A stretch of 64,000 nucleotides of DNA from an uncultured virus (IMG/VR IMGVR_UViG_3300042298_001940) (Duplodnaviria > Heunggongvirae > Uroviricota > Caudoviricetes): the IMG/VR virus record IMGVR_UViG_3300042298_001940. One strand, 5' to 3'. The notes under the pieces were generated by a model that was given only the letters and a program-made list of their open reading frames with translations, searched no databases and was not told where the DNA came from. A program made the position numbers and the translations under genes. Shown piece after piece: positions 15,060-40,395 of the stretch (positions are counted from its first letter, which is position 1; every line of letters starts with the position of its first letter).

Positions 15060-15068
15060 GGAGCAATA

Positions 15069-18000
15069 ATGTCAAGAGTTAATTCACAAGGTTTACTAGG
15101 TTTTAACCAAGCAGCCCCATCTGTTGAAATCGCAGCCCCAGCTCCTCAGTTTATTGAAAGTCGTTCCGTAGGTGGTCAGTTACAGGTAGCACAACCAAGA
15201 CAACAGGTAGGTCCATCATCCGAAGAAGCAGCCTACGCGGCTCTTGCCCAGATTGCTGGTGGAGTAGCTAAAGGTCTTGATAACTTTGCCGACATCGGTT
15301 CTAGGATTGAAAAGGAAAAGATTCAAAGAGCACAGTTGATCTTTGACGAGATTGATGCTGATGAAACCATGGATCCAGATACCAAGTTTTCAAAGCTTGA
15401 AGAAAGAACAAAGGATATTTATACACCTCTGTTGGGAGATAACTGGAAAAAGGAAATAAACAACAGGGTCAAGAAACAATGGATGTCTCAACAAGCAAGA
15501 GATTCTTACGAGGAAAGACGTTATAAGACAGAACTTGGTGAGTTCCTTGAATCAAGAAACCTTGATATTAACAGCCAACTGACACCAGAATTACTTGATG
15601 AGTTTCAGAATATCTACGAAAACAGATATCCACTCAGCAATACGGTTTCGTGGTTCCAGCTAAACAAAGCAGAGACAAAGGCAAAGGTTGCCGTAAATAC
15701 CGCGAAGAGAATGAACTCATCGGTTATGGCCAACGTTATGTCTATGATGAGTACCCCACCAGAAAACATCGTTGCGGAATACAACAACACACTAGATGCA
15801 AACAGAAAGAAAGAAATTGAAAATGAGTATCCATTCTTCTTTGAATCGGTTGCTTCAATCCCAGTTAACGCTACTCCACAAGATGTTTTTAGTTTGCTTC
15901 GCTCAAGAGTCCAAAATAATCTAGAACCATCATTGATGGAACTTCCTGATGATGTAAAAGCAATCGTACTCGAAAATGTAGAGGACGCAGTCCTACAACA
16001 AATGCCACGTTATGTTGGTGTACTCAAGGAAAACAAGTTAAATGCAGTAAAAGCAGAAGCAGGAGTGGCTATAGACAACGCCTTTACAGTGTTTAACGGC
16101 AGCGCAAAAGGAGATGTTCATCAGTTTCTTGATGCTATTTCTCAAAATCTAGGACCACTATGGCAAGATAGGGATAAAATCACCAGTGGTTTGGTTCCTT
16201 TGGTTTTTGATAAACTATCAAAAGAAAACCCAGAATCATCTCCGTATGAGATATGGAACATGGTTGAGCAGCAGTTTTCTTCTTTTGAAAACCTCGATAA
16301 GCTAATGAACAGAGGCATGCAAACCAAAGATTGGTTATCCAGTCAGAAACAAGGTTTAATGCAAAGCAATACATGGCAAAATAGGATTAAAGTCATGGTT
16401 GAAGACGCAAAAGATGACCTTGGGTTACTGGCAAATAACGACGCTCGGTTTTTGTTTACAGATGAAGCCATATCGGGAAAGATAAAGTCCATCTTTACTA
16501 GTTTAGCCGATGCTCTCGGGATTCCAAAAGACAACCAAACTGAGTTTGTAAATTACATGGAATCTTCTATAATAGCACAAGATAGCCAAGGCAACGCTGT
16601 ATTTGCCATTGACGATTCAAGCATGGGGGATTGGTTTAGGCAAATGCCTCCTGAGTTTAAAACAATACTAAATGAAAACGGGTTTACCTTGGATTCTAAC
16701 AGAAACCTAAGGAATGAAATGTATGCGATGATGACATCTGCTGCTAATATCATGATAGAAACCCAAAAAAACACAGGAAAAACCACAGTTTCTGAAACCA
16801 CGACAACACCAAAGGTAATGAAACCATCTGAAGCTAGTGTTGAGTTTTTTACTTTGAATCCTGGGGAACAGGATGTACTGAAAAGGTACGACAGTGTAGA
16901 AGGAAACCTTAAACTAGAAGAGCGATACAGAATGCTTCAGATAAAGGGTCAATGGAATGTACATGGAGCGGGATTCACAACATGGCTTTCTCAACAAGCT
17001 GGTAGTAAACAACTGGTAGACTTACCAGTAGACAACCCGTGGATACAGGGTCTTGATGCCTTTATGGACCAAGGAAGCAACCCAAAACCAGACCTAGCAG
17101 AAAAGTTTCTTGATCACGCTCCTAGAAGTGTCAAGTCATACATCCAAGACAGTTCGTTGTTGGACCCAACTACAGGGGAGTTAACAGCAAACGGAGCTGC
17201 TGGACTTCTTGTCCTGGAATACAAAACAGCGACTATGTCAAGAGATGGATGGAACACTCCGCAAGTAAGTGCATTTATGGGTGAGTTTAGAGATTTGCTT
17301 TCAGCTACAAAGCAAAGATTAAACAAAGGTGAAACACCAACAAGAGAGTTATACATTATCAACGCTGTTTTACAGGGATTAAGAAAAGCTGGAAGGGATA
17401 AAACAGAAGTTATTACCGCTTTAGGTAGCGGTGGGGATCAGTTAAGTTCTATTGGTGTTTTGCTAGCTGTAGCCGATACTCCTTTTATTCAGTTTAATTC
17501 TGATGACCCAAACCTAAAGAAAGCAACAGAAAGATTTACTGAAGTAATGAAACCAGCCATAGACTTTGTCGGGACTGGAAATCTTGGAAGCAGAGATATA
17601 CCACTCGTTGGTAACAGAGACACAAAAGAAGTTGCTTATGGTTCTATTGGTCGAAGTTTAATGAATTTGTCTTTACCAGGACCAACCGATTGGAGAAAAA
17701 AAGAAAACTGGCCTACAATTACTAGGAGTCATGGTTTTAAAGACGAAAAAGACATGTATGATTTTATTGGTTCAATAGTACCTGGGCTCCCATCGTGGGA
17801 TATGGCGTCTACATTGAATGTAAAAGTAAAAGATGAACAAGGATTAGAAACTAACATTGAGTGGGAAGACATGGGACCACACCAAAAAGTAATGTTTGCT
17901 TTGGAAGAACTTAGAAAAACAGATGGTTCTTTGGAACAAAAAGGCAACTTCTTTGCAATGTTGTTGAAGATGAATGATGACGGTAACACCACATTTAATG

Positions 18001-18797
18001 ACCCAATTTTACGAAGTAACCTAGCAAAAACACTTATTCTGCCCAGTAACTTCAATGTACCACAGCTAAAGCATGTTGGTTTTGCTGAGGTATCTAAAGA
18101 AAAAAAGGGATTATTTACTAAGACAAGAGATATGACAATCAGGCGTGTTCCAGAAGTGACCGTTTCAAACGGATTGTTTTCTTTGGATGATGTTCATCGA
18201 AGAGTCAGAAACACAAGTCTTGGTTTTAATGCAGCAGACCCTACTGAAAAAACCCTAGATCCTTTGGGTTGGGGACTTAATTCAGAACTAGAGGTTGCAG
18301 CCCATATGATGCTGGGGGATACAGACTTTACAACACAAGAAGCAACGGCTATAGTAAATGCAATGTACAAAGCCACTGGATCTGGTTTTGTTGCATCCAC
18401 AAGTTTGTTTCAAAATAGGACTAAGGATACAACCCTGTACCAAGTGTTAGAAAAAATACCTCAGTTTAGGTCTTTAGTAGAGCAAGCAAGAAAAAAATAT
18501 CCAGAAGGTAGATACCTTAGTATATCCACACAAAGAAACGGGAATAATGAAATACATCCTGTTTTGGTAATAGGCGATACCAGTATTCCTTTGGTTTCTG
18601 ACGATCCAGCGGTAAATACTAATTCATTTTTTAGACGACAAAACACAAACGAAAAAAACGACAAACAATCAATTGACGAAAGATTGAAGAAACTTCAGGC
18701 TAACATCTGGTATCAAACAGGCAAGATAATAAGACCTACGATAATCCAAGAAAAACAAAGAATGGAACCTAAGATAGGAATGGGTCTTAGATTCTAA
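15069..18797 (+). CDS. internal virion (ejection) protein, gp15-like
   Basis: 1242-aa helical protein following the gp14-like gene. Confidence 0.6.
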   Translation: MSRVNSQGLLGFNQAAPSVEIAAPAPQFIESRSVGGQLQVAQPRQQVGPSSEEAAYAALAQIAGGVAKGLDNFADIGSRIEKEKIQRAQLIFDEIDADETMDPDTKFSKLEERTKDIYTPLLGDNWKKEINNRVKKQWMSQQARDSYEERRYKTELGEFLESRNLDINSQLTPELLDEFQNIYENRYPLSNTVSWFQLNKAETKAKVAVNTAKRMNSSVMANVMSMMSTPPENIVAEYNNTLDANRKKEIENEYPFFFESVASIPVNATPQDVFSLLRSRVQNNLEPSLMELPDDVKAIVLENVEDAVLQQMPRYVGVLKENKLNAVKAEAGVAIDNAFTVFNGSAKGDVHQFLDAISQNLGPLWQDRDKITSGLVPLVFDKLSKENPESSPYEIWNMVEQQFSSFENLDKLMNRGMQTKDWLSSQKQGLMQSNTWQNRIKVMVEDAKDDLGLLANNDARFLFTDEAISGKIKSIFTSLADALGIPKDNQTEFVNYMESSIIAQDSQGNAVFAIDDSSMGDWFRQMPPEFKTILNENGFTLDSNRNLRNEMYAMMTSAANIMIETQKNTGKTTVSETTTTPKVMKPSEASVEFFTLNPGEQDVLKRYDSVEGNLKLEERYRMLQIKGQWNVHGAGFTTWLSQQAGSKQLVDLPVDNPWIQGLDAFMDQGSNPKPDLAEKFLDHAPRSVKSYIQDSSLLDPTTGELTANGAAGLLVLEYKTATMSRDGWNTPQVSAFMGEFRDLLSATKQRLNKGETPTRELYIINAVLQGLRKAGRDKTEVITALGSGGDQLSSIGVLLAVADTPFIQFNSDDPNLKKATERFTEVMKPAIDFVGTGNLGSRDIPLVGNRDTKEVAYGSIGRSLMNLSLPGPTDWRKKENWPTITRSHGFKDEKDMYDFIGSIVPGLPSWDMASTLNVKVKDEQGLETNIEWEDMGPHQKVMFALEELRKTDGSLEQKGNFFAMLLKMNDDGNTTFNDPILRSNLAKTLILPSNFNVPQLKHVGFAEVSKEKKGLFTKTRDMTIRRVPEVTVSNGLFSLDDVHRRVRNTSLGFNAADPTEKTLDPLGWGLNSELEVAAHMMLGDTDFTTQEATAIVNAMYKATGSGFVASTSLFQNRTKDTTLYQVLEKIPQFRSLVEQARKKYPEGRYLSISTQRNGNNEIHPVLVIGDTSIPLVSDDPAVNTNSFFRRQNTNEKNDKQSIDERLKKLQANIWYQTGKIIRPTIIQEKQRMEPKIGMGLRF

Positions 18798-18815
18798 CAA
18801 AGGAATCGACTTAAA

Positions 18816-21413
18816 ATGAGTACAATCAACAACGACCTATTATCCGCCGTAAGAAACATGCCGCAGGAACAAACAAAGGAAGATTTTAGGCGGTCAATAT
18901 ATGATAATGTTTTAGGTTTGACTTTGGATGAGAATAACCAACCATACTACAGTAAGCTTGTCGATGAAGACCAAATCTCTAGATTCAATGAGTTTATGGG
19001 GAATAGTTTAGGTAGTTTGTTGAATGACAGATCAATCACAGAAACACAAATACAACTCGACAAAATCAATACTGGTCGTTCTGCTTTTCTTGAAAGAATA
19101 TCCAATGAAGGTCCAGTCTTGGGTTTGGCAGGGTCAACAAACACAAACACACAATCTGTGTTTATCAACAAGGATGGTATAGCAACAAAGGATTGGATGT
19201 CTTTTTGGGAAATGTCTGGGCTGTCCAATGTATATGGAAACAATGTTGAGTTTATGGGATCATCTACAGCCGCGTTTTACTACAAAACATTGTATGGAAC
19301 AAGTAATGCTTTGTTGGAAAAATCCATGGCTTGGCCGAGTATTAAAGCAGAACTTGAAAAAAAAGGAACCCTAGAACAAGAACAATTTATTGCAGATTCA
19401 CTGATTTCACCAAGTACTTTTGGAAAGGCTTTTAAAACTTCCGTTGTTGGTCAAACTCTTTTTGGGCCAGTTTATAATGAGGCAACTACCCAACTCCCGC
19501 TTATCAGCAGTATAAAAGCAACTGTAATTAACCCAGAACTTACCTTGTTCCAAGCCAAGGATCCAGACTTTAATCCCAATTCACTTGTAGATTCAATAAA
19601 AGAAATGGATCCAGATTTCTGGTCATTCCTACAATCAGTGGGTGTAGAAGAAAACGAACTTAGAACAGCAAACAACATATTTGATTTTAGGTTTAGGTTA
19701 AATACAACTGTTCTAAACGATGCCTTAGCAAAATCAGCCGAGGCTGAAACAAGAAGAACAAACCCTATTGTTAAGGGTGTTAATTTTACCGCCGACATGG
19801 CTATTAGTAGTATTGACTCACCAGATTTTGCTGGTCAAGTTTTAATCGCTGTTTCCACAGCTGGTCTTGGAAATTTAGCAGCAGGGGCGGCAACACTAAG
19901 CACCAAAATAGGTTCTGCAACCGCAACCACAGCTGCAAGGACGGCAAGAATCGCAAGCATTGCTACAAAGATGCAAAGAGTTGGCAGTGGTATTAAAAAA
20001 GTAAAAGACTACCTTCCCGTAAACATCGCGTCTACTTTATTGGAAGGTTCAAACAAGGCATGGAAAACCAACAAGCTACTCAAGTATGTTGTTGGTCCAG
20101 CGGCTACTGAGTTTGTCGAAGAAGGCGCAATTGATGTTGTTAACCAGCTGTTGAACATTCATGTGAACAACACCCAGATTAGTTATGATTTTGAAAGAAC
20201 ATTTGATGCCTCGGTATCTGGTGCTTTGGCGGCTCCCCTTCTTGCAGGAACGTTCAAGATTGGTGTAGATTTACCAATAGCAATCGTAAGTTATACTGGC
20301 GGTTATGTTGGAAACTGGGCTACCAACCGAATCATCGGAAAAACAATCAATGTTAATCCAACAAGATTCAGAGAGTTTAGACTATATTACGATAATTTTA
20401 CTGGTAGGAAGTTTGAAGACAAGACACCAGCTGAACAACAAATGCAGATAGCTGGTGAAGTCAGAGCCCTTGTCGTTGAGGGTCTGCTGAACGAAATGAC
20501 AGACAACCAGTTTGGTAGACTAGATGACGAAAAAAACTTGGATGTTCTTGGTGGTTTGGAGGCTTTGACCAGAATCGACATGGCAACCGACGACACAAAC
20601 CAAAGAAGCATGTTGGATGTGGTCGTGGCTGTAAACGACTGGTTGTCAAATGTATCTGCTCTTGGAACCACCGACACCACGACTGGAAAGTTTACCAGAA
20701 AAATCCAACCATTCATGGACAAAAATCCAGGTTTTTTCAGAGAGACAAAAGATGGTAAACTGGTCATGTCCAAGGAAGCAATGGAGACAGTCTTGTTGGT
20801 CGTATCTGCTGCATCCAAAAGCAACTCAACCGAAGCTGTTTCCATAAGCACTTCTGTGTTGCAGAACATGCTTGTCAAGAAATTGTTTGATGCAGAAGTA
20901 GCCAAGGGAACCCCAAAGGAAGAGATTCCCCAAAAGGTTGAAGATGCCATACAGAACGAAACAGAGGATTTTGTAAAGGCCAAGGAAAGCATAGAAAACC
21001 TTGGCAAGGTGGCCACCGAACTAGTTGGCGAAGTCGGGTCTTCCGATGCAGCGCCACCAGAAAGCGGAGATAAGGAAATAATCAACAACACGCTGGAAGT
21101 AGGTACCATTGTCAGCGATACGGTGGAGAAGATCGTACAGCAAGTCACTAAGGTTTCTAAAACCACTCCTGTAGTTACCAAAACTGAACCATCTGCATGG
21201 GACGATCCAGAAACAGCTCAACTAATAGAAGCTCTTCGTGCCGAAAGGGCAGCGGAATCAGAAAAAGTTAAAACCGTACCCACGGCTCCTGAGGCTGCTC
21301 CCGAAGTAAAAGTTTCAGCCACAATAACCAATGCTATAGATACCGACAAAGCCATCAACATCGTAAAAGCCAAACCAGAACTAATTTCCCTAATCAGCAA
21401 GATTTGTAAGTGA
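18816..21413 (+). CDS. internal virion (ejection) protein
   Basis: 865 aa with Gly/Ala-rich hydrophobic segments (membrane-insertion type) and a TEFVEEG motif. Confidence 0.55.
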   Translation: MSTINNDLLSAVRNMPQEQTKEDFRRSIYDNVLGLTLDENNQPYYSKLVDEDQISRFNEFMGNSLGSLLNDRSITETQIQLDKINTGRSAFLERISNEGPVLGLAGSTNTNTQSVFINKDGIATKDWMSFWEMSGLSNVYGNNVEFMGSSTAAFYYKTLYGTSNALLEKSMAWPSIKAELEKKGTLEQEQFIADSLISPSTFGKAFKTSVVGQTLFGPVYNEATTQLPLISSIKATVINPELTLFQAKDPDFNPNSLVDSIKEMDPDFWSFLQSVGVEENELRTANNIFDFRFRLNTTVLNDALAKSAEAETRRTNPIVKGVNFTADMAISSIDSPDFAGQVLIAVSTAGLGNLAAGAATLSTKIGSATATTAARTARIASIATKMQRVGSGIKKVKDYLPVNIASTLLEGSNKAWKTNKLLKYVVGPAATEFVEEGAIDVVNQLLNIHVNNTQISYDFERTFDASVSGALAAPLLAGTFKIGVDLPIAIVSYTGGYVGNWATNRIIGKTINVNPTRFREFRLYYDNFTGRKFEDKTPAEQQMQIAGEVRALVVEGLLNEMTDNQFGRLDDEKNLDVLGGLEALTRIDMATDDTNQRSMLDVVVAVNDWLSNVSALGTTDTTTGKFTRKIQPFMDKNPGFFRETKDGKLVMSKEAMETVLLVVSAASKSNSTEAVSISTSVLQNMLVKKLFDAEVAKGTPKEEIPQKVEDAIQNETEDFVKAKESIENLGKVATELVGEVGSSDAAPPESGDKEIINNTLEVGTIVSDTVEKIVQQVTKVSKTTPVVTKTEPSAWDDPETAQLIEALRAERAAESEKVKTVPTAPEAAPEVKVSATITNAIDTDKAINIVKAKPELISLISKICK

Positions 21414-21419: not shown

Positions 21420-24400
21420 ATGCCCTGTAGTATTGATCAACTTAAGCACATTGCAGACAGATTGTTAAAGCAAGGATATTCAGAGGAAGAGGTTACTTCT
21501 GTTGTTACTTTGATTTCCAAAAGAGATCTTGATTCAGACCTAAGCAAGAAGATCGATTCATTGGTGACCAACCCAATTACGACAGAGGATCAGGATTTCC
21601 TAAGAAAGTCAGTTGCAACCATGATTGCTAATGTTGATAAGGTTGTCACAGGTGGTAGTATACTAAGACTTGATGAACTCCTTAGCAGGGTATTGCCAGC
21701 CGAGGATGTAACTAGGGTAAAGGAACTCATTAAGAAGATCAGAATAGCAGATGGCAATGTAGACCTATTTAGCATCTCCTATATTGAAGATATCGATAAC
21801 CTCATTGAAATGAATAGAAACCTAGGTAGAGAGTCAATCCTACCGATGCTTTTTGATCGGCGTGATAAAGCAGTTCAGAAGATGAACGAGTCTCGTCGCT
21901 ATGAAGATACCAAAGAAGGAAACAAAAGACGGGAAAGAGATGAAGCCCTAAACAAGATCAATCAACTCAAGCACCTTTTAAACTATGTTGAATATGTCAT
22001 TAACATGACAACACCAAAAGGCACCAGTAACAAGGTAAAGAGATACCTAACTGCAAAGGAAAAGATAAAGTCGTTGCAGAAATCACTGAAGACAGAAAGA
22101 TCCTTGGTAAAGAGATTCAAGGCTGGTGTCAAGGGTTTCAAGGAAACAAACCAGAGAATCAAGGAACTTGAGAAAGAACTAAGCGATGCCAAGCAGGAAG
22201 AACAAGTTGCCTTTGAGGACATTGTAAACGACAAGTTCCTTGAACTTTCCGATGGAAAGAAAACAATCAAGCTTAAGTCTGTTGCAAAAGCACAGGAACA
22301 GATCAAGAACGCAATTGAAAGGGAAGCAAAGAAGGTGGATGGGTTTGGTGTCGAGGAGATTTCCAAGCTTACAGCCGCTGCAACCAAGTCATTGGCTGAA
22401 AAACTTGTCCAGGAACGCATTGCTTCTAGAAACATCAAAGCAACCGTAGAAAGAATGAACAAACTTGTTGATTTCTACGAAGAAGAAAAGGAAAAAGCTG
22501 GCGAAACAAGGGATGCAATTGACCATATCTTCATGGGAACCATTGTCGGCAAGGCTGTAGTCGAGCGTTGGTTACGCAAAAACAGAACAAAGAAGGCGGA
22601 AGATGGTTCGATGGAAGTTGACCGTAGACCACTTAGCGTTCTTGCTGCAAAAGACATCATAAACGAATGGAAAGCCCTTGCTTGGTTTGGTGTTCAGGAA
22701 GGCACATTCTCCGACGATGTAGCCACAGCCGTGGATTCCGAACTTGCCTTGCTGGAAAGCATGGTTAATTCGTCTGGAGTGGCAAACCCACTAAGCATGG
22801 ATGTTAACAACATGCGTGTAAAGCAGGATAGAACTGGTGCTGAAGCCGCCATGATGACCAATATTGGCGTAATCCCAGAAGAAAATAAAGCCCAGACAGC
22901 CAGACAGCTGTCCTCCTGGCTTGAGTACACCATTAGAGGTCTATACAGTCTAAGGGCAAGCCCCTTCTACAACGGCACCGTCACATCCAAGGCCATCGAT
23001 ATGGTTTTACACCCCAAACTGTACGATTTAACCATCAATTCAGATAGTCTTGGTTTGGTCAGTGGCAAGAAAAGAAAAATGAACCAACCAAGTAAAGCCA
23101 TGTACCTTGGTCGTATGAAGGAGTTGCTAAAGGATCTTGGAATTGAAGACCCAGAATCCCTACCAGAGTTCAAGCCAGATTTCAGTACTAACAGAAATGC
23201 CATTTCATATGACATCGAAACGGACCCAGTAGACAAGGGTACCAGCAACCCAACAAAGATCATCAGCATGCAGATCAGGGTTCAAGACATTGATTCTGGT
23301 GCTGAGCCAGTAAGCTATGTATTTACCAATGCAGATGATTCCAAGCCACCCGTAAACAACCTTACGGTGGATGGACCAAAGAAACCACTGACCAAGCAGC
23401 AGATTGAATGGGTTCTTCGGTTCATGGAAGAGTATCAAAACAAAGGATTTAAGTTGGTTACCTTTGCTGGAAATAGCTTTGACCTCGGCAAGCTAAACAA
23501 TCCAGCGTTTGTCGATGATGCAAAGCTGGTGACAAGAATCGCCCTACGCAGCTATGACTTACAAAGAAACCTTGGTTTCCACAACAAGGAAAGAAGAAAA
23601 GGTGGGAAATATTTTTCCTCCAAGCCTAAGAATGCTGGTCTCAAGTCAATAGCCAAGAACAACCTACCAGACTCCAGGACAGTAACCGAAGATGGTCGTT
23701 ATGTCGTTACAAACGGAGCCGTATACGAACTCGGTGAAGGTGGAGTTGAGGTTGAGATTCTGGGAAAGGAAGCCGAGGAAAACTTCAACAAGGCAAACCT
23801 TGACAACGATTGGGCAAAGTTCAACCTATATGCCGACAACGATGTTATTACTACTTTGGACTTGTTCAACTACTTCATAACAAACGCCCAGACCAATGTA
23901 TCCATTGTGGATGAAATTGACAGCGGTCTCAGTTATTCCATCATGATAAACAGACCACAGTCCAACATGATGCTTCCTCTTGACGACAATAACACAAATT
24001 CAATTACTTTCAGTGAACTGATGTCCAGCTTTACGGATGTTGACAGCAGAATCAAGGAGTTTTCCCATGATGTCGAGTATGTCGAGGAAATGGACATCAA
24101 CCTTGATAAATTGATCTCGCTATTGGAAACTTGGTACATCCAGGCTTTGTCCATGGATCCAGAATCCAAGGATAAGTTAAACCAGCTACAGAAGGCATTG
24201 ACCGACACCATTAACACCGAAACCATAGTCCAGCAGACTGGCAAGAAGGTAGCCGACAGAATGGCCAAGGCCGTTAAGGAGTCAGCAAAGGAAAACTTCG
24301 CCAGGTTTGGGTATGTACTTGCCATAAATACCGATGAAAACGGAAACCCAAGACTAGACACAGAAGATGAACACTCCTTGTTCCTTCCAGCAGATTCCGA

Positions 24401-27400
24401 GACAGTATACGTTGAAAACCTTGTCGAAGCATTTGTCGATGCACTGAAGACTTCCCGTTCCTTGGATTCCGTTGAAAAGGAAATGGTTGAGAAATTCAAC
24501 ATACGATCAAGACAGCAACACGAAGAACCATCTGTATACTTCCAGAGATTCCTTACACAAGTGCTGAATACCTATTTCCCAATCAACGCTTTGTCTGATT
24601 TTGGCAATGGCAATGTTGACTGGCATCCAGCAAGGGATGTCGGGGTTGCATTGGCCCATGTCTTTACCAACAGAAAGGAAGGCATGTCCTTGGTTGATGT
24701 AAAGACAATGATGGGAACCCAGGGTTTTTCTGGACGACAATTTGCAGCTGAAGAAGCAACAAACAGGGGTGTACCCAGGTTCTTCCTGCTTGACGGAACC
24801 AACTTTGCGTCTCCATGGGGAATCACCGAAGAAGCCTTGATCTATGACAACTTCAGGTTGCTAAGCAGAATGAAAGACATCATGGAAAGAGACCTTACCG
24901 AGGAGGAAATGAAAGACATTGAGAAATGGGCTACAACCAAGGAAGACAGCGATCCAGAGGTCGCCTTGTCCGTTTTCCGAAGAGGAGCCGTTCCTACAGT
25001 ATTCCCAAAGGTAACAAGTAGAGCAGCCTATGATTTCCTACCAAGCCTTTCCGAACGAGAGTTGATGGGTCAGGAGTTCTTGTTTGATATCCCAAGACTG
25101 ATGATGTTCATCAACCACGATGCCTTCTATACACCATTGGCTCAGAAAGGACGGTGGTTGCAAGACGGAAGCATTTACTATGCCGAGGACTTCTTTACGG
25201 CTGGTGCTCCGACCGCTAAGATGATCCTGTCTGGCGCAATTGACCATATTGCTTGGTTAGTCAGCTTTGACAAGCTAAATCCAAACAACAAAAACCTGGA
25301 TAAAGTCCTTCGCAAGGCGTTGTCCGATGGTATCGACGCGGTGATCGCAGACCCAACGGTCCAGGACTCCGCAAACAAAAACGACTACTCGTACCACGGT
25401 GTTCACATCCAGCTTATGCTTTTGTTGTCTGCAAGCGGCGAGCAAGATGTGTTTGACAAATTCCTAGAGGAACTGACCAAAAAACTCGACACCGAGCAAG
25501 AAGCCGATGTCCGTAAGAACTTCGAGCAGTTCAAGAAGGAAAACGATCCAAGAAACAAACTGAATGACATGCTTATCGACTTGCTTGAACAAGCCAAAAA
25601 CAACAGAGAGCAATTCAAAGGCTTGTTTAACTTAAGTGAAGACCAGACAAACGCATTCCTTGAGCTTTTGCCATTCTTGGAAGATCCAACACCAAAAAGA
25701 AAAGAATTCCTAAAAGGAATCATTACACCATCCATGTATTCAGCTGGTTATCAAGGAATTTTCAAGGGTATTCTTGCAAAGGCAGATTCCGCTGGTCTTA
25801 CAAACATCACGGAAAGACATGCTTCCGTTGTTGCGAAAATCGTTACCAATAAGATAAAAGACGAAAATGCAAGATATGTTGATAAGGCAATCGGTATTTA
25901 CGGCAAGACCAAGCAAGGCAAGGACAAGAAACAGGTCATCATTGATGTTCTTTGGGGAATGTCGGCTAGGATTGATGAGGCAAAAATCAAGGAAAATGCA
26001 TTTAAGAACTTCAACAACGAGGTGGATGCCAAAAAGAGAATCGATTCCGCGGTGGCCTATCTCAAGACATTTATTCGGTTGATGGTAGATCAATCCATGA
26101 GCAAGGCTGGCAAGAACGAAGATGATATCAAAAAGGAAAGAGAAGCAAAGATAAACGAACTCAGCGATAAGTACCAAGAAAGAATGAACAAGGCCGCTGC
26201 AATCATGGCAAAACACGACATGAGGGATCCAGATGTAAGGAATGACCCAAAAATCCAAGATGAGATCAACATTGCCTTGATGGGAGACAAGAGATCCTAC
26301 CACACCCACTTGATGCTGCACACCATCGCAAGACGGGCTGCCACTCCATTTAAGTTGCTTGCAGACAAGGAAACTATGGAAATGCATTCGGCCTACGCTG
26401 GCCAGCATATCGATGAGGCGGATGTTACTCCATTCATGAGCAAGACTCTGTTCAATGCCATGGGCCTTGAGCTAGCCAGCGGCAGACACCATATGTTTGG
26501 CAACTATGAGTGGGGACCTCAGGGATCCAAGGCCGCGCAGATACGGGTTCTCCACGGCAGCGATAAGAACGAACTTGGAATCTGGGACATTGAAGAGGTA
26601 TACAAGAACACCGAACGAAATAAAGCCTATAGAGAAGCGTATGTCCGTCAGATCATGCTTGACCTCGCTCCAAACTACTACCCACCAGGATATGATCCAG
26701 AGACAGAAAGCATGGAAAGCTTCTTTGATGCCATGAATAAAAGATCAAGGTTGGAAAGAGCAGCACAGGTAAGGGCGCAAAACACCCTTGACATCAATAG
26801 AATCATTGACAGAAATGATCCAAATGCCAGAAAGATATCAGACACGGCGGAAAAACTAGAAGAAAACAACTTCAAGAGCAGACTTGGTTGGATCCGTGGC
26901 AACTACCAGAGAGACCGTTCAAAGCCAATTGTATTGGATCCAACCGTCAGCGGCCTTGCTGCGTTGCGTCCCCGTCATGCAAACATCGATTACACCCAAC
27001 GGGGCATGTATGCCTTGATCGGCATGATGAAAACCAGAGAAATCGAACAGACCGAAATGTTCAAGAGAAACAAGTTGGTCCAGGAAGCACCCAAGGATGG
27101 GGACCCAAACAACATCATTCCAAAGACAATGCGTGGTTTTGTGAAGACAACGGACAAAAGAAACATGCCGTATGTCCCCCACCAGTCAGGAAACATGATA
27201 ACCTCCCTAACGATCAGTCCAAACAGAGAGGTTGAGATAGAGGCGGTAAGGCTTAGAAACACCCTTACAAACTTTGCCGTTGACAACGGTCTTGAGGACA
27301 TGCTTAAAAAAGGCGAGTGGACAAGACTGTGGATGATCAAGGAATGGCGAAGACAGGGTCTGGAAGGTGCCATCTACAGCATGAAGAACCAGAACAAGAG

Positions 27401-30400
27401 CGATCTATCTTCCATGATGCTTAGCCGCATCAAGATGTACGAAGCGATATTCAAGTTGATGGGAACAAACGCCAGAGCCTATAGCCCAGAAAAGACATAT
27501 AGCACCCTGGATCTTATGGCTAAACCAGAGGATGTCAGCTTTACCGCCGATGAGATCGATGAACTTCGCAAGAACTTCCCAGATGGCCTAAGATACCTTG
27601 ATTTGCTCCGTCACATCTCTGGTAGGTTCGATAGGTTGACTGGTCTGGCAAACAACAGGCCATTGGTTGCGGTCCCAGGTATCATCGCAAGAGGCAATCC
27701 TGGGCTTATTGTAAACGAACCAGCATTGAGATCCTTGTCGGCATTCAGCATCGAAAACAACAACAACATCTCCATGATGTTGATCATGACCGATGTATTC
27801 CAGGAAGAAGCGGAAAAGGAATACAAGGATGATCCGTCAATTCCAAGGGATTCGGCTGGCAACATCGCCCTTTCAATGATTCCAGCCGATAAGAACAAGT
27901 CGATGAAGATCTTTGAACGGGTGCTTGCCCGAGCCAACGATGTGGCATCTGAATGGGGTACAAGAAAGGATATTGTGATGGTATTTTCTCCAGAACAATT
28001 GGAAGAATATAACAACACCCAGAAGGAAGTTGCCAAGCAGGGAGAGAACCAACTTACATTGCAGATGCCTTTGACATCAAGTACCCATGTGTTCAACCAA
28101 GTTAGCAATCCAGATACCTTGTGGTATTTCACACCAGACATGGTAATCCAGTTCCTTAACTCCTTGAGAAACGACGACCCAATTACAAACTACGAACTTG
28201 GTTGGCAAACCAGAAAGACAGTTGGTTTTGTCCGTACCGATGCCGATATTTTGGTGATGGAAGAGCAAAACCAGTTGATGGACAACCTTGGCCGCAGCGT
28301 CGATCTGTCCCATCAAGCTCTGGTCCTGCTACATACCTTGGATCCATCGCCAGACAACAATACCCTGTTGTACCAGAACAACTACAGAAAACTAGATAAC
28401 ATGGGCAACCCTACGATGACATTGGATGCCACCGCATATCTCGGTAGTTCCTTTGAAATCAACCTGGAAATAGACGGAACAGAGCAGTCGATAGCCATAA
28501 GCTTGGAAACCGCCATGTTTGCAACGGACATTCTTTCTGCAATCACCAGGGCTAGAAAACTAGGGATGTACGAAGAAGCCAATAAGTTGTCCTTATTCTT
28601 GTACAATGAGTTGACGGAACCAAGCGTTGACATTTCAAAAGATGCAACAAAGATCAACCCAACTAAGGACATCGTCATAAAAGCTGCCGTATTGAAGTCC
28701 CGTTTGGATGGGCTGAACAATGTACCAGTCTACCGAATCAGGGAAATCATAATGAGTACCCTACAGACCGAGATCAGCGCAGAAGATGCAAAGAATGCTT
28801 TTGAGATGGCCCATGATGTGTCACGGCTTATCCAGAAGATTGCGGATACAAATCCAGACCAAAACCAGAAGATGAACTATGTTGCAAATGCCTTGCTCAG
28901 CAGAAGAGAGATGGCTGAGGAAGGCGTGGAAAACGACTCTTCATTGCAGGGCATGATCATACAGGCTGTCGGTGCTAAGGATACTCCGCAGGAAAGAAGC
29001 AAGGCAATGAGAGCCTTGTACATTGCCCAACAAGACCTAAGTACGGTACCAGAAGACAGGCCATTCGGGCATCTCCCATGGGATGCAAGAAAGGATGTAG
29101 CCAGGTTTGCAGACCAAGACGAATTCATCAGGGCATTTGGCGATAGCGGTCGTGGTATCGTGGACCAGTTGAACGGCATGGTGTCAATGGGCTACATGAG
29201 CAGACGGGTTGCGGACATGAAGATGATCCTCATAGGATCGTTGGCCATTGTCAACCCAGACATCCTAAGCGATCTTTCCCTTGATGCCTCCGAGTTTGAC
29301 GGCCAGACATACGCTAGGATGGCAAAGCAAAACGGAAAGTACAGCATCGGTGTAAACATCAAGGCAATGGAAACAACACCAGAAAACGAAATGTTGTTGA
29401 AGTTTGCGGAAGAACTGGTCCACCTTGCAAGAGTAAAGTACATGGCCGATGGCTCCGAGGAGTACAAGAGAATCCAGGCTGTCTTCAGGTTGCCCAACTC
29501 AGAAGGCATGATCAGGGAAATGTTGTTAGCAATGCACAATGGAAAACCATACGCAGCCATCGAACAAGATGTTCAGTATGCAATGGACAATACGGATGAA
29601 TTCCTGGCTCACTGGGGTGCTGTTGTCCTATTGTCGGAGACGGTATACAGCCCAGATACCTTGGTCAAGCTTGAAGCCAAGTATGCCCCAGTAGAGATGA
29701 CAAGTAATTGGTTCAAGAGAGCGTTCTTCAAGATTAAGAACATCGCCATCCGTGCCTTGAACATGATGAGCCAGATGTCGTTGGATCGCAAGTATTCAGA
29801 CAGCTTTAATGAAATGTACGATGTCATGCAAGGATTGATCGGACAAGGATTGACCGATAGACGGGATGTAGGAAATCCAGACATGGCCTTTAATGCGGTG
29901 TTTTCAATCAAGACCGACCAGGTTCAGGTGACCCCAGGAATGTACATGGACATGCGGGTTGCCGTGTTTGAGAAAAACAGGTTGAATGGAAGAATACGGG
30001 CTGGCGATGCGACACCAGCCGACGAAACGCAGTTAAGAACCATAGAAGACACCCTTAATGATCCAAAAGCAAATCCACTTGGAATCATGGGAATGACCCT
30101 TTCCCAGGTTGTCGAGGAAATGGAAAACATTAGTAGATCCGAAAGCGGAAACATTGTCAGGATCAAAAATGGAAGCTTGGCAAACAGAGCTATCCTCCAA
30201 AAAGCCATGACACATTACTTTGGACAGAGAGGCACCAGAGTAGACAACTCAGGAACCTTGGGTGGAACGATAAGAAACATGTTCAGGGGTGCGGATGACT
30301 TCATTTCGTTACAGATCCAGAACAGACTGCTACAGTCATTCAACAACTCAAACCTGACATACAACTCACCAGAAGCAATACTTGTGTTTATTTCGGATGC

Positions 30401-33400
30401 AATTGACAACACAGCCGTAACCACCCAGTCTTCATACATGCCTTCCCAGACCCAAGGTGGTTTTGAGGCTCATAAGGAAGGACTGAAGTTATATGTAAAC
30501 GATATCATTCATACGGCGCTTGGGATCCAACACAAACACAAGGAACAGGCAAATATCGATGCCATCCACCGCAATGCTGGGTTGATTGCGGCTGGTCTTC
30601 CACTTGATGCCTCGTTTACCAACCCAGACATGATCGAAGATGCAAAAAGACTGGGTAATAAGATCAAGCTATTCAATAACCAACTAAGATCCAAACTGGT
30701 CGAATCCAGAATCAAGGATACGGGAGACAACCTGGATGCAATCGGATTGAAGCTGGTAAAGTCAACGCAGCTGGAACAAGAGCAAAGAGACATGGGATAC
30801 AATGCCGTTGTCAATGCAATGCGGGCAAAGTATCTGAACAACCTCGACAACGACAGACTTGATTCGATTGTCAATCCATTCATGATGTACATCGCTGGAT
30901 TGCTGGTCAATCCATCTTCGGACAAAAACTCACTACAGAGTGCTGAGTTCAGGAATGAGATCATCAAGTTTACCAAAAACCCAAACAATGCTGCTATAAA
31001 CGCAAAGGAAGCATCCATCAAGAATCTGGTAAACATGGCTATGGTAATCAGGTTGCAGAAGGAAAAGCAAATGTATCCAAGCAGAACCATAGGAGACATC
31101 CAAACCAAGGTAGCCAGGGATCCATTCTATCTCAACGAAGAGATAATAGAAGCCAGCAATAGATTCATCGTTGCCACAAGAGAAAACTCATCTAGATTCA
31201 ACACGGCCTTCAACAACCTCACGAACACCGAGATACAGTTGATCCATGCTGCCGTCAGGGAAGTGGTAGCAACCAGAGAAGGAGATGAAAGTTCATTGGT
31301 TGCAACCAGAATCAAGGAGATAAAGAGCAACAAGGAATCGTTCGGGTACTATCAGGGCAAGAGCAACTACTATCCGCGCAGAACGGATCTGTCAAACCCA
31401 ATGTTCATCCTTGCCGACCAGTTCCTAGGCAAGCTTGGATCGACGGCCTATCTATTCTTAAATAGCGGACCAGACCTCACATACGCGGACATTTTCTTGA
31501 ATCCAATAGGAATAGATCCAAGAGACCAGCAGTATCTACAGCGAATGTTTGACGATGACATTCCGACAATCCAGCAAAGCCTGATGAGAGGACAGGGATA
31601 CGATGCAATCCAGAGAATCATCGTCCAAAAGATGACTGGCATAGAAGGTGCGTACTTCTCCATCTCACAGCTCATTGATATGTTTGAGACAGAGGTACAA
31701 GCACGGGGTCTGGCCCACAACAACATGCGTGTTCAGAACTTTGATAATAGAAGAGACGATCACAGGGAACAAACCTTGTTGAATGGATTGCAAAAACTGA
31801 GGGTTGCCAACAGCAAGGCAAAGGAAGTTCTTGGCGTTCGGGAAGAAAACCAACCACTAATCGATGCGATTAACAAGTACGGCCCGATTGCAACGACCCT
31901 GGCCTACGGACCCAACGCAGCCTTGGCCACAACACTGGTGGAAGGAACCATGGGTGCCTTGGAAAGCGTCCTACAGGGAGCTGCTGGCGGAATGGCCACA
32001 TCCCCGATCACATTCCTTTTTGAAGCATTCAAGATGAACATGGACTCAAGCCTGAGGACAGTCCAGAAGATCGTAGATAGACGGGACGGCAGAACATCGT
32101 TCTTCAATGTAGATCCATACTTGCTAAGCAAGACGGCGGAAAACGCATTGTGGATGATGGAAGAAACCACATCACCGCAAATCCCAGGCCAGCTTACCGT
32201 CAATGCCCTGAGCGCCGATGAAAAGGCAAATATGAATACTTTTGACAGATTCATGGCATTCTCAAGAAGAGCATACTCGGATCCAATGAGATCTTTAAGA
32301 GTTGCAGCCGAGAATCAGGCAAACAGGGGCGTTGTGGAAAGACTGAGGGATGGATCCTTGGTCAGGTTGCGGGACAGCGTGAACCGAATCCTAAGGGACA
32401 ATCCAAGTCCAAGCAACGAAGTACTAAGGGAAGTCCTGAGGGATGCAGGGGTGCGTATGGATGTCGAACTGATGCTCATCTACGTCAGGTCTGGTATATT
32501 CGTACCTGGCCGCATCGAAGCACTACAGTACACCATGTCTCAAGCACCAACCAAGACAAACAGGATCATGTACCAGGTCATGGCAGACATCGAAGCAGAC
32601 CTTAGGCTAGGAACGACATACGATGGTGTTACGATCACCCCAAGCCTGATGCACGATGCAAGACTCAGCATGGCAACCCTGTCCAAAGCATATGCAAACC
32701 TAAGCATAGTCATGGACCATCCATTGGATGGCACCGCTGCATCCGATGGCCTAAGCGTTGTCCTTACATTCTACAAGTCGTATCCAACCTTGTTCATGGC
32801 TCAGCAGATCTACAGACGGGGAAGCGTAGCCCCAGCGTTCAGGCACGGCATCAGGTTGCTTACCCATGCAATGCTTGACATGATCTATAACATCCTGTTG
32901 GCCTTGGCAAGCGGCTGGTACAAGTGGGAAGAACTCATGGAACGGATAGAGAAGGGAAACATTAACTACACCGAGCTAGCCAAGTTGGTATTGAGATATC
33001 CCGTGTTCAGCATGAACAAGGTTGGATTAGTCAGTCAGTTGTTGGTAACCCTTGCAACAGACAAAATGAACAAGAACAGCATAATAAGCTCAGTCGGTGA
33101 ACAAGCCATCATAAACACGTTTTTCAACATGGGTAAAGCCGTAGAGTCATACTATTACTGGGCTACTGGTCAGGTAAGCAAGGAACACCCAGGTGTTGCC
33201 ACATACGCAGCACTCAGGGGATTCCTAAGTGCAGTCCCAGGAAACACACTGATCAGGATAATTCTTGAGCAATCCTTTGGTCAGTCTGGAACCACAGGCA
33301 CAGCCACCAGACTGCCAGCCGCACTCATGAGGCAAGTTGACATGGTTTCAGATGAAAGACCAATGAAGGAATTCGTCCGAACCCTGTTCCCAGATGGCGT

Positions 33401-33560
33401 TAAGAACAAAAAACCAACGGTAAAGCCAATGAAGCTGACGGATATTCCGAAGATTCGTCCGCTATCTAGACAAACCCCAAAGACCAATACCCCAACAACC
33501 AAATCCCCCAGTATCAAGGAACAGGCAACCACGCCATTAAAAGCTCCGTCTGGTTTTTAG
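21420..33560 (+). CDS. giant polyvalent virion protein (4046 aa): DEDDy exonuclease domain, putative N4-like virion RNA polymerase core and zincin-like domain
   Basis: YDIET (D598/E600), GNSFDL (D688), YADND (Y804/D808); QKGRW (R1245), DYSYHG (D1322), RKEFLKGIITPSMYSAG (K1432-x7-Y1440); EELVH (2664) and DEFLAH. Confidence 0.65.
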   Translation: MPCSIDQLKHIADRLLKQGYSEEEVTSVVTLISKRDLDSDLSKKIDSLVTNPITTEDQDFLRKSVATMIANVDKVVTGGSILRLDELLSRVLPAEDVTRVKELIKKIRIADGNVDLFSISYIEDIDNLIEMNRNLGRESILPMLFDRRDKAVQKMNESRRYEDTKEGNKRRERDEALNKINQLKHLLNYVEYVINMTTPKGTSNKVKRYLTAKEKIKSLQKSLKTERSLVKRFKAGVKGFKETNQRIKELEKELSDAKQEEQVAFEDIVNDKFLELSDGKKTIKLKSVAKAQEQIKNAIEREAKKVDGFGVEEISKLTAAATKSLAEKLVQERIASRNIKATVERMNKLVDFYEEEKEKAGETRDAIDHIFMGTIVGKAVVERWLRKNRTKKAEDGSMEVDRRPLSVLAAKDIINEWKALAWFGVQEGTFSDDVATAVDSELALLESMVNSSGVANPLSMDVNNMRVKQDRTGAEAAMMTNIGVIPEENKAQTARQLSSWLEYTIRGLYSLRASPFYNGTVTSKAIDMVLHPKLYDLTINSDSLGLVSGKKRKMNQPSKAMYLGRMKELLKDLGIEDPESLPEFKPDFSTNRNAISYDIETDPVDKGTSNPTKIISMQIRVQDIDSGAEPVSYVFTNADDSKPPVNNLTVDGPKKPLTKQQIEWVLRFMEEYQNKGFKLVTFAGNSFDLGKLNNPAFVDDAKLVTRIALRSYDLQRNLGFHNKERRKGGKYFSSKPKNAGLKSIAKNNLPDSRTVTEDGRYVVTNGAVYELGEGGVEVEILGKEAEENFNKANLDNDWAKFNLYADNDVITTLDLFNYFITNAQTNVSIVDEIDSGLSYSIMINRPQSNMMLPLDDNNTNSITFSELMSSFTDVDSRIKEFSHDVEYVEEMDINLDKLISLLETWYIQALSMDPESKDKLNQLQKALTDTINTETIVQQTGKKVADRMAKAVKESAKENFARFGYVLAINTDENGNPRLDTEDEHSLFLPADSETVYVENLVEAFVDALKTSRSLDSVEKEMVEKFNIRSRQQHEEPSVYFQRFLTQVLNTYFPINALSDFGNGNVDWHPARDVGVALAHVFTNRKEGMSLVDVKTMMGTQGFSGRQFAAEEATNRGVPRFFLLDGTNFASPWGITEEALIYDNFRLLSRMKDIMERDLTEEEMKDIEKWATTKEDSDPEVALSVFRRGAVPTVFPKVTSRAAYDFLPSLSERELMGQEFLFDIPRLMMFINHDAFYTPLAQKGRWLQDGSIYYAEDFFTAGAPTAKMILSGAIDHIAWLVSFDKLNPNNKNLDKVLRKALSDGIDAVIADPTVQDSANKNDYSYHGVHIQLMLLLSASGEQDVFDKFLEELTKKLDTEQEADVRKNFEQFKKENDPRNKLNDMLIDLLEQAKNNREQFKGLFNLSEDQTNAFLELLPFLEDPTPKRKEFLKGIITPSMYSAGYQGIFKGILAKADSAGLTNITERHASVVAKIVTNKIKDENARYVDKAIGIYGKTKQGKDKKQVIIDVLWGMSARIDEAKIKENAFKNFNNEVDAKKRIDSAVAYLKTFIRLMVDQSMSKAGKNEDDIKKEREAKINELSDKYQERMNKAAAIMAKHDMRDPDVRNDPKIQDEINIALMGDKRSYHTHLMLHTIARRAATPFKLLADKETMEMHSAYAGQHIDEADVTPFMSKTLFNAMGLELASGRHHMFGNYEWGPQGSKAAQIRVLHGSDKNELGIWDIEEVYKNTERNKAYREAYVRQIMLDLAPNYYPPGYDPETESMESFFDAMNKRSRLERAAQVRAQNTLDINRIIDRNDPNARKISDTAEKLEENNFKSRLGWIRGNYQRDRSKPIVLDPTVSGLAALRPRHANIDYTQRGMYALIGMMKTREIEQTEMFKRNKLVQEAPKDGDPNNIIPKTMRGFVKTTDKRNMPYVPHQSGNMITSLTISPNREVEIEAVRLRNTLTNFAVDNGLEDMLKKGEWTRLWMIKEWRRQGLEGAIYSMKNQNKSDLSSMMLSRIKMYEAIFKLMGTNARAYSPEKTYSTLDLMAKPEDVSFTADEIDELRKNFPDGLRYLDLLRHISGRFDRLTGLANNRPLVAVPGIIARGNPGLIVNEPALRSLSAFSIENNNNISMMLIMTDVFQEEAEKEYKDDPSIPRDSAGNIALSMIPADKNKSMKIFERVLARANDVASEWGTRKDIVMVFSPEQLEEYNNTQKEVAKQGENQLTLQMPLTSSTHVFNQVSNPDTLWYFTPDMVIQFLNSLRNDDPITNYELGWQTRKTVGFVRTDADILVMEEQNQLMDNLGRSVDLSHQALVLLHTLDPSPDNNTLLYQNNYRKLDNMGNPTMTLDATAYLGSSFEINLEIDGTEQSIAISLETAMFATDILSAITRARKLGMYEEANKLSLFLYNELTEPSVDISKDATKINPTKDIVIKAAVLKSRLDGLNNVPVYRIREIIMSTLQTEISAEDAKNAFEMAHDVSRLIQKIADTNPDQNQKMNYVANALLSRREMAEEGVENDSSLQGMIIQAVGAKDTPQERSKAMRALYIAQQDLSTVPEDRPFGHLPWDARKDVARFADQDEFIRAFGDSGRGIVDQLNGMVSMGYMSRRVADMKMILIGSLAIVNPDILSDLSLDASEFDGQTYARMAKQNGKYSIGVNIKAMETTPENEMLLKFAEELVHLARVKYMADGSEEYKRIQAVFRLPNSEGMIREMLLAMHNGKPYAAIEQDVQYAMDNTDEFLAHWGAVVLLSETVYSPDTLVKLEAKYAPVEMTSNWFKRAFFKIKNIAIRALNMMSQMSLDRKYSDSFNEMYDVMQGLIGQGLTDRRDVGNPDMAFNAVFSIKTDQVQVTPGMYMDMRVAVFEKNRLNGRIRAGDATPADETQLRTIEDTLNDPKANPLGIMGMTLSQVVEEMENISRSESGNIVRIKNGSLANRAILQKAMTHYFGQRGTRVDNSGTLGGTIRNMFRGADDFISLQIQNRLLQSFNNSNLTYNSPEAILVFISDAIDNTAVTTQSSYMPSQTQGGFEAHKEGLKLYVNDIIHTALGIQHKHKEQANIDAIHRNAGLIAAGLPLDASFTNPDMIEDAKRLGNKIKLFNNQLRSKLVESRIKDTGDNLDAIGLKLVKSTQLEQEQRDMGYNAVVNAMRAKYLNNLDNDRLDSIVNPFMMYIAGLLVNPSSDKNSLQSAEFRNEIIKFTKNPNNAAINAKEASIKNLVNMAMVIRLQKEKQMYPSRTIGDIQTKVARDPFYLNEEIIEASNRFIVATRENSSRFNTAFNNLTNTEIQLIHAAVREVVATREGDESSLVATRIKEIKSNKESFGYYQGKSNYYPRRTDLSNPMFILADQFLGKLGSTAYLFLNSGPDLTYADIFLNPIGIDPRDQQYLQRMFDDDIPTIQQSLMRGQGYDAIQRIIVQKMTGIEGAYFSISQLIDMFETEVQARGLAHNNMRVQNFDNRRDDHREQTLLNGLQKLRVANSKAKEVLGVREENQPLIDAINKYGPIATTLAYGPNAALATTLVEGTMGALESVLQGAAGGMATSPITFLFEAFKMNMDSSLRTVQKIVDRRDGRTSFFNVDPYLLSKTAENALWMMEETTSPQIPGQLTVNALSADEKANMNTFDRFMAFSRRAYSDPMRSLRVAAENQANRGVVERLRDGSLVRLRDSVNRILRDNPSPSNEVLREVLRDAGVRMDVELMLIYVRSGIFVPGRIEALQYTMSQAPTKTNRIMYQVMADIEADLRLGTTYDGVTITPSLMHDARLSMATLSKAYANLSIVMDHPLDGTAASDGLSVVLTFYKSYPTLFMAQQIYRRGSVAPAFRHGIRLLTHAMLDMIYNILLALASGWYKWEELMERIEKGNINYTELAKLVLRYPVFSMNKVGLVSQLLVTLATDKMNKNSIISSVGEQAIINTFFNMGKAVESYYYWATGQVSKEHPGVATYAALRGFLSAVPGNTLIRIILEQSFGQSGTTGTATRLPAALMRQVDMVSDERPMKEFVRTLFPDGVKNKKPTVKPMKLTDIPKIRPLSRQTPKTNTPTTKSPSIKEQATTPLKAPSGF

Positions 33561-34103: not shown

Positions 34104-34169
34104 AGCCCTACTGTCGCTCCCTCCTAGGTAGGTCCCTAGGAGGGAGCTTTCAGTTGCGCTTTGCAACAA
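34104..34169 (+). repeat. intergenic structured repeat, copy 1 (RNase III site or hairpin promoter candidate)
   Basis: AGCCCTACTGTC-[13-bp stem]-TTTCAGTTGCGCTTTGCAACAA; repeated at 34376-34438. Confidence 0.85.
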
Positions 34170-34375: not shown

Positions 34376-34438
34376 AGCCTTACTGTCGCCCCCCTAGGAG
34401 AAATCCTAGGGGGGCTTTCAGTTGCGCTTTGCAACAAC
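34376..34438 (+). repeat. intergenic structured repeat, copy 2
   Basis: AGCCTTACTGTC-[GCCCCCCTAGGA-GAAA-TCCTAGGGGGGC]-TTTCAGTTGCGCTTTGCAACAA. Confidence 0.85.
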
Positions 34439-40152: not shown

Positions 40153-40395
40153 ATGACTTTTAAACATAGACTGAATGTAACCCTGGAACAGGAGACCTAT
40201 GATGTCTTAGTTCTTGTAGAAGGTGTTGTGATCCCTGAGCCTTATGGTTCCGTGGACAGGCACCATCCTGTTGTTATTTCCTTTAAGATTCTTAACCAAG
40301 ACAACCCTGTACTGTATGATTTGATCAACACAATGTACATGCCTCAACTAGAAGAAGCTGTAAGTAACAACTTTATTGGAGTAGACAATGCATAA
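40153..40395 (+). CDS. hypothetical protein
   Basis: 80-aa ORF in the packed + strand operon. Confidence 0.55.
   Translation: MTFKHRLNVTLEQETYDVLVLVEGVVIPEPYGSVDRHHPVVISFKILNQDNPVLYDLINTMYMPQLEEAVSNNFIGVDNA

Follow-up and report, generated by a model that had tools for sequence, protein, structure and literature searches.

What does the largest gene of a T7-like podophage encode, and does its product carry a hidden RNA polymerase (RNAP)? The question is raised by a 64,000-nucleotide stretch of DNA from an uncultured Caudoviricetes virus (IMG/VR record IMGVR_UViG_3300042298_001940; hereafter the window), in which a single giant open reading frame (ORF) specifies a protein of 4046 residues. 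An initial annotation had proposed that positions 24900-26800, which correspond to residues 1161-1793 of this ORF, hold a cryptic virion RNA polymerase (vRNAP) core. Virion-delivered RNAPs are known in N4-like phages and, with another fold, in crAss-like phages and P23-45. The analysis described here suggests that the giant protein is probably an injected enzyme akin to the N4 vRNAP, gp50, with a candidate catalytic site, a reading to which the near-absence of Cys, an exonuclease-like domain, an RNAP-like core and a zincin motif jointly point. The core itself is likely a very divergent, apparently rearranged relative of the T7/N4-type single-subunit RNAPs. For the complete statement, an ejected N4 gp50-like enzyme whose divergent RNAP-like core is active, we estimate a probability of roughly 45%; the homology of the core to single-subunit RNAPs, considered on its own, is on balance probable.

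The giant protein belongs to a family whose members comprise about 4000 residues. A word-indexed search with the giant protein retrieved 11 proteins at E <= 0.001 (6109 candidates), and when 1.84 billion representatives were searched exhaustively with a profile, 56 proteins were identified, 32 of which have at least 3000 residues, while those below 3000 residues probably originate from short contigs. Single-protein scans for further relatives added three loci only. The phages that carry the related genes are about 65-72 kb in size and come from water metagenomes, and a literature search of limited scope found no published description of the family. The core alignment on which the conservation values below are based combines the window protein with 36 matches longer than 2000 residues at a domain E < 1e-3 (n = 37), excludes shorter fragments and protein P0056, and reaches down to ~16-20% identity.

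All strings quoted in the initial annotation were located at the residues assigned to them in the 4046-residue ORF: FYTPLAQKGRW at 1236-1246 (R1245), NDYSYHGVH at 1321-1329 (D1322, G1327), RKEFLKGIITPSMYSAG at 1427-1443 (K1432, Y1440), TLFNAMG at 1676-1682 (N1679), SFFDAMN at 1767-1773 (D1770), EELVH at 2664-2668 and DEFLAH at 2726-2731. When chance levels in the single sequence were judged against 200 shuffles, the loose patterns were unexceptional, with 13 occurrences of K-x7-Y in the giant protein (shuffle mean of 8.3) and 14 of D-x4-G (14.5 in shuffles). The full motif B pattern, [RK]xxxKx7[YF]xxG, and the pattern hh.HD occur once each, against 0.10 and 0.26 expected, respectively. Since loose patterns in one sequence are at chance level, the case rests on conservation and comparison. 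Residues G1075, P1132, R1150, H1233, D1234, D1322, G1327, D1376, K1432, R1689 and G1845 are each present in 37/37 members of the core alignment, and D1668 and G1443 in 35/37; in the full-length alignment D1668 is retained in 34/36 and Y1440 in 32/36 sequences. The motif A (D1322 with a Gly at +5) and motif B (K1432 and Y1440, here with K1428 and G1443) put forward by the initial annotation therefore stand, because they are conserved throughout the family, and the latter also matches the N4-type motif B by profile. In contrast, its T/DxxGR and motif C assignments fall, as they are not conserved. R1245 is confined to the near clade, the invariant Gly-Arg pair being 1688-1689, downstream of motif B; elsewhere the position of N1679 holds H, F, T, P, S or M, and in 10 aligned relatives that of D1770 holds M, E, I, K, N or Q.

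The Glu found five residues after the motif A Asp constitutes the steric gate of family A DNA polymerases, and this position is a Gly (G1327) in all 37 aligned members of the giant-protein family. Between motifs A and B, distant clades have D-h-Y at D1376, which resembles the DLY and DFY found in the RNAPs of the window itself. The spacing is D1322-54-D1376-52-K1428, the corresponding distances in N4 being 47 and 60 as read from the full-length alignment. Two positions are candidates for the second catalytic Asp. HD1234 lies 88 residues before motif A, within the sequence hhhxHD[SCAG], in a segment that DSSP assigns as strand-turn-strand in both structural models described below, while D1668 stands at the canonical distance after motif B. 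If D1668 provides the second carboxylate, the resulting order A, B, C, T can be generated by circular permutation, whereas no simple permutation of this kind yields C-like, A, B, T-like. Other assignments were considered and discarded. D1257, aligned with the N4 motif A in the top, non-significant hhalign alignment, varies in distant clades, and D1723, which hhalign pairs with N4 D951, is not conserved. A second canonical core downstream of R1689 was likewise dismissed: residues 1700-2330 contain neither a conserved Lys nor an Asp at a motif A position, and the sole acidic residues conserved at 88% or above in this part of the protein are E1763 and D2336.

Comparison of profiles relates two parts of the core to N4-type enzymes. 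A profile of the vRNAP domains from N4 and nine diverse Schitoviridae (10 sequences) was aligned by hhalign with the 37-sequence core. Residues 410-444 of the N4 mini-vRNAP, which form the T/DxxGR hairpin, matched residues 1674-1711 (score 41.3, E 0.0019) with R424 paired to R1689, and N4 residues 606-698, which include motif B, matched residues 1372-1460 (score 39.8, E 0.0028) with R666, K670 and Y678 paired to K1428, K1432 and Y1440, respectively. Control scores reached at most 20.5 over 25 block-shuffled comparisons and 18.2 with the reversed template. When full-length proteins were compared with full-length Schitoviridae proteins, the three best local matches (E 0.08-0.2) joined the A/B region (1289-1452 with N4 1480-1687), the zincin segment (2660-2676 with 2224-2240) and the T/DxxGR region. 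In a language-model comparison the nearest clusters, PF00940 and the N4 vRNAP families, scored 0.87 and so fell short of the 0.9 line, and this neighbourhood is treated as a lead only.

Two AlphaFold models were obtained, covering residues 1020-2000 (predicted local distance difference test score, pLDDT, of 68.3) and residues 1196-1796 (pLDDT of 63.8); cropping to the shorter segment did not improve the palm. Each model was compared, independently of Foldseek, with 48,161 chains using VIA. T7 RNAP ranked first with both models (Z of 8.0 and 8.2), the second model presenting a root mean square deviation (rmsd) of 2.8 Å over 96 residues, with residues 1375-1491 corresponding to T7 568-689. Human mitochondrial RNAP ranked second with both (Z of 7.1, with a rmsd of 2.9 Å over 88 residues, and Z of 7.3). 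The matched T7 and mitochondrial ranges, which VIA gives as ranges and not as residue pairs, include what we take to be the O-helix. In addition, residues 1608-1728 were matched to residues 300-446 of the N4 mini-vRNAP (Z of 4.9) and to residues 141-266 of N4 RNAPII chain A (Z of 3.5).

Upstream of the core, the giant protein contains a conserved DEDDy exonuclease-like domain, recognised from its sequence motifs, which is new here and had been missed by the initial annotation. Residues of ExoI (DxE), ExoII (NxxxFD) and ExoIII (YxxxD) are all present, D598, E600, D688, Y804 and D808 being found in 13/13 near relatives and in 26-30 of 36 sequences in an automatic alignment. The segment matches PF13482 at E <= 0.1 in 11/13 members (best E 2.4e-6), PolB_exo1 in four and PolA_exo1 in two; the window segment itself, at 19.8 bits (E 0.0008), stays below the PF13482 cut-off of 22. 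A PDB profile search aligned ExoI-III of an archaeal PolB with E 0.03. Downstream of the core, the resemblance of the EELVH...DEFLAH segment to N4 vRNAP, proposed earlier, finds some support: the N4 gp50 structure report describes a conserved HExxH in subdomain C1 of the C-terminal domain (PMC13434306), and the pairing of the zincin-like segment with the N4 HExxH is the second-best local match of the full-length comparison (E 0.086). Residue 2664 is His in 17/36 and Glu in 18/36 sequences, E2665 and H2668 are kept in 35/36 and E2727 in 36/36. As position 2664 is Glu in the window clade, this clade has EExxH and not HExxH, so that the window protein, with EELVH, departs from the HExxH plus third ligand of zincin metallopeptidases. 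The invariant E2727 could represent the third ligand. A PDB profile search with the zincin-like segment returned nothing.

By its gene content the source is a T7-like podophage lineage, the window encoding a T7-type scaffold, major capsid protein, tail tube A, nozzle, fibre N-terminus and terminase, together with a primase-helicase, a family A DNA polymerase with an exonuclease domain (PolA) and a full T7-like RNAP of 816 residues (47756-50206). The terminase gene is followed by ORFs of 245, 1242, 865 and 4046 residues, and the same order (terminase, ~250, ~1300 and ~1000 residues, giant ORF) is kept in 3/3 relatives from different clades, all with a ~600-residue ORF after the giant gene that is RNAP-like, by its match to an RNAP PHROG, in 2/3. 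The giant protein contains one Cys in 4046 residues and the three upstream products contain 0, 0 and 1, compared with 0.7-1.9% Cys in five other proteins of the same phage; a relative of N4 gp50 has 0 Cys in 3500 residues. Cys depletion thus spans four consecutive ORFs, an observation that is new here. Apart from a weak match of the 245-residue ORF to phrog_805, 'internal virion protein' (E 0.001), the three upstream ORFs have no family matches, and the gp15/gp16 families gave no sequence match. They likely encode co-ejected internal virion proteins, and we infer from gene position and Cys depletion that the products of all four ORFs may exit the capsid in an unfolded state. The single Cys of the giant protein is encoded at window positions 21426-21428, and a Cys at residues 3-6 is found in 32/36 relatives, the most distant four having no Cys at all; it may mark a site of N-terminal modification or processing.

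The closest known parallel is N4 gp50, which is also giant (3500 versus 4046 residues) and free or nearly free of Cys. In both cases the gene follows those of smaller ejection proteins in a podophage genome of ~70 kb, local profile matches relate the two proteins at motif B and at T/DxxGR, and a zincin-like motif lies C-terminal to the polymerase part. Unlike gp50, the giant protein has no Pfam vRNAP match, carries its T/DxxGR-like hairpin after motif B, offers only candidates for motif C (HD1234, D1668), includes an extra DEDDy exonuclease-like domain and separates core from zincin-like segment by ~640 residues, in a phage with T7-type structural genes and T7-like RNAPs. With T7 and mitochondrial RNAPs (PF00940) it shares the fingers-like bundle, the D-x4-G of motif A, D-h-Y and [RK]xxxKx7Y, but it lacks a sequence-level match and an HD after motif B, and its core is embedded in a 4046-residue protein. 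A run of increasingly large Cys-poor genes in the late region recalls T7 gp14/gp15/gp16, although the genes lie here after the terminase and not before the fibre gene, and the largest product, three times as big as gp16, bears enzyme-like invariant motifs. Family A and B DNA polymerases also have ExoI/II/III N-terminal of the polymerase motifs; here, however, a Gly replaces the steric-gate Glu and ~400 residues separate the exonuclease-like domain from the first polymerase-like motif. The tape-measure RNAP of P23-45 similarly lies within a giant virion protein, as predicted here, yet is related to cellular multisubunit RNAPs and not to the T7/N4 type. That RNAP is reported to be injected and to transcribe pre-early genes (PMC10770324). 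For phage StenR_269, a published study proposes a vRNAP in a giant podophage protein from size, absence of Cys and helicity alone (PMC10747016).

In the proposed mechanism, a protein organised as N-terminal region, exonuclease-like domain (590-815), core (~1020-2000), zincin-like segment (~2640-2740) and large C-terminal part would be packaged in the virion, as is N4 gp50, would pass unfolded through the tail with the three other Cys-poor proteins and would refold in the cell. There it would polymerise ribonucleotides on the incoming genome, using D1322, D1234 or D1668, K1432/Y1440 and R1689, and so would start early transcription, including that of the phage's two T7-like RNAP genes. With these two further genes, the phage may run a three-polymerase programme comparable to that of N4.

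Several results weigh against this proposal. Searches of the core against Pfam, including the N4 vRNAP families (E <= 1), PHROGs (E <= 0.01) and PDB sequences, also with a profile, found nothing, and tblastn of residues 1000-2000 against 50,697 phage records was equally negative. The giant protein matches none of the curated vRNAP families PF21769, PF21894, PF21624 and PF21867, all four of which N4 relatives carry, nor the PHROG vRNAP families, and fails to match PF00940 at the gathering score, which the 816- and 625-residue ORFs of the window do. A near-family profile, compared by hhalign with N4 gp50 and with the RNAP and PolA of the window as single sequences, also gave nothing. The only row in the standard searches, a match to PcyA (E 0.12-0.4), is irrelevant. 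In the comparison with a Schitoviridae vRNAP profile, which the initial annotation had recommended, the two strong local matches score about twice the best shuffle, but hhalign gives them a low probability, 11-14% in the core comparison and < 1% at full length, and the matches at motif B and T/DxxGR are not collinear. In fold, the first two VIA ranks point to the fingers of single-subunit RNAPs, whereas Foldseek against PDB and BFVD returned nothing at E <= 0.001. According to the guidance that comes with VIA, moreover, models without a true match typically peak at a Z of 7-8; the part matched here is helical and helices score high, and pLDDT falls below 50 around HD1234 and D1322 in both models, leaving the palm poorly modelled. 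The motif order is noncanonical, with the T/DxxGR-like hairpin ~250 residues after motif B instead of before A, and no invariant acidic residue occupies the hairpin at the canonical place of motif C (1676-1683). The block around HD1234, compared with motif C in a profile of T7-like RNAPs (39 of 117 full-length homologues, every third), scored a marginal 30.9, 26.0 and 25.9, barely above the highest null scores, 24.0 among 20 shuffles and 26.4 among 15, and had no match to the vRNAP profile, and it was set aside as a motif C identified by profile. Finally, the phage already has two T7-like RNAP genes, and to our knowledge no exonuclease domain is known in RNAPs. Of the cryptic vRNAP core as first proposed, motifs A and B are upheld and the zincin parallel finds some support, while R1245 and both motif C candidates are not supported.

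Many of these points would also suit an ejection or channel protein that has no polymerase activity and acts like T7 gp15/gp16, its motif likeness being convergent, its helical bundle a common arrangement and its conserved charged residues serving other chemistry or DNA binding. An internal-virion-protein gene position and Cys depletion are what such a protein would show, the standard homology searches are all negative, the VIA scores lie within the range of unrelated best matches and the motif order is noncanonical. We nevertheless regard this explanation as unlikely, because both profile matches have double the highest score in 25 shuffles, single-subunit RNAPs take the first two places among 48,161 chains with each of two models, the fold match spans the segment with the invariant [RK]xxxKx7YxxG, and D, G, K and R remain invariant at 16-20% identity. 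A polymerase fold that has lost catalysis, and that would grip or pull the genome or scaffold the ejectosome, would account for the missing conserved acid on the hairpin at the motif C position, for the rearranged segment order and for the presence of two other RNAPs in the phage; the invariance of D1322, D1234, D1376, K1432 and R1689, with D1668 in 35/37, is hard to explain without catalysis, and makes a pseudo-polymerase quite improbable. The exonuclease-like domain raises instead the prospect of a DNA polymerase or other proofreading nucleotidyl transferase that is delivered in the virion and serves, for example, the end repair or fill-in of the entering genome and not its transcription. 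Its position N-terminal of the polymerase-like core is that seen in family A and B DNA polymerases, and the DYS tripeptide at D1322 resembles what we take to be motif A of Pol I. Such an enzyme appears a poor candidate here, given the invariant Gly in place of the steric-gate Glu, the RNAPs as best fold and profile matches, the failure of hhalign to detect the phage's own PolA and the fact that this PolA already comes with an exonuclease domain.

If the protein is indeed an injected RNAP, a virion polymerase would exist in a widespread aquatic T7-like lineage and injected transcription would be commoner than thought, the family would serve as a very distant outgroup in tracing how T7, N4 and mitochondrial RNAPs evolved, the polymerase core would be shown to tolerate a rearranged segment order, and the role of a DEDDy exonuclease beside an RNAP would come into question. 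A bolder interpretation, which we hold to be doubtful, is that the family represents a third, segment-rearranged lineage of single-subunit RNAPs, fused to a proofreading-type exonuclease in an ejected virion protein of 4000 residues. The thumb and T/DxxGR block would then follow the fingers, the HD hairpin would precede motif A, and the order could have arisen by re-fusion of split subunits of the N4 RNAPII kind. Such a lineage would connect the T7-like phages with the N4-like ones, and its RNAP would be the first to have a DEDD exonuclease in cis. The positions of all features are collected in Table 1.

Table 1. Giant gene, its conserved segments and associated genes, in window coordinates (counts refer to the core alignment).
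Feature	Window position	Strand	Basis or remark
Three ORFs 5' of the giant gene (245, 1242, 865 residues)	14322..21413	+	Cys-poor, syntenic with the giant gene
Giant ORF P0001	21420..33560	+	4046 residues, sole Cys is C3
DEDDy 3'-5' exonuclease-like domain, residues 590-815 (D598, E600, D688, Y804, D808)	23187..23864	+	motifs and family matches
Polymerase-like conserved core, residues 1020-2000	24477..27419	+	conservation, profile and fold comparisons
Hairpin with H1233-D1234 at its tip, residues 1226-1240	25095..25139	+	37/37; motif C-like, upstream of motif A
Motif A-like NKxDYxYxGxH, residues 1319-1329 (D1322, G1327)	25374..25406	+	D and G 37/37
Invariant D1376	25545..25553	+	DPR in near clade, D-h-Y in distant clades; starts the T7 RNAP fold match
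Motif B-like O-helix, residues 1428-1443 ([RK]xxxKxxxTxxxYxxG)	25701..25748	+	hhalign and VIA ranks 1 and 2
HIDxxD segment, D1668	26406..26423	+	35/37; predicted short helix; candidate second carboxylate
T/DxxGR-like hairpin, residues 1676-1707 (E1684, G1688, R1689, then GPxxSK)	26445..26540	+	R1689 37/37
Zincin-like segment, residues 2640-2740 (FAEELVHxAR ... DEFxAH)	29337..29639	+	conservation, local match to N4 HExxH
C-terminal region, residues 2900-4046	30117..33560	+	large, conserved, no match found
Second, compact T7-like RNAP paralogue, 625 residues	34422-36299	+	downstream of the giant gene

Most of the N-terminal domain is missing from the compact RNAP paralogue, which retains motif A (QQDQTCSG), the DFY sequence and motif C (IHDSIGT); its gene lies in a GC-rich stretch (52-53% versus 43-46% elsewhere). 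A composite element is present twice where the early region begins (34116-34169 and 34388-34437), between small ORFs, each copy consisting of a GC-rich hairpin of 12-13 bp followed by TTTCA and a small hairpin, GTTGC-GCTTT-GCAAC. Differences between the two copies compensate within the hairpins, and the elements look like terminators or RNA processing sites. N4-style small hairpin promoters were not found in the early region, and sigma-70-like sites are not enriched (14 versus 16.5 expected). Further into the early region (40388-45863), paralogous small genes occur in up to five copies with internal repeats (families D1-D5 and D7) and share starts around AATGAA...TGGAT...GCCCT..GGTGA.TA. GC-rich imperfect repeats of 24-67 nt (families D6, D10 and D12) occupy positions 54795-55473, at the overlap of a 227-residue ORF (54499-55182, + strand) and a 321-residue ORF (54756-55721, - strand), and this segment resembles coding sequence for a repetitive coiled coil. 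A gene for a DUF932/phrog_1221 protein (46183-47214, + strand), which is kept in the two relatives examined, is situated between the early region and the 816-residue RNAP gene.

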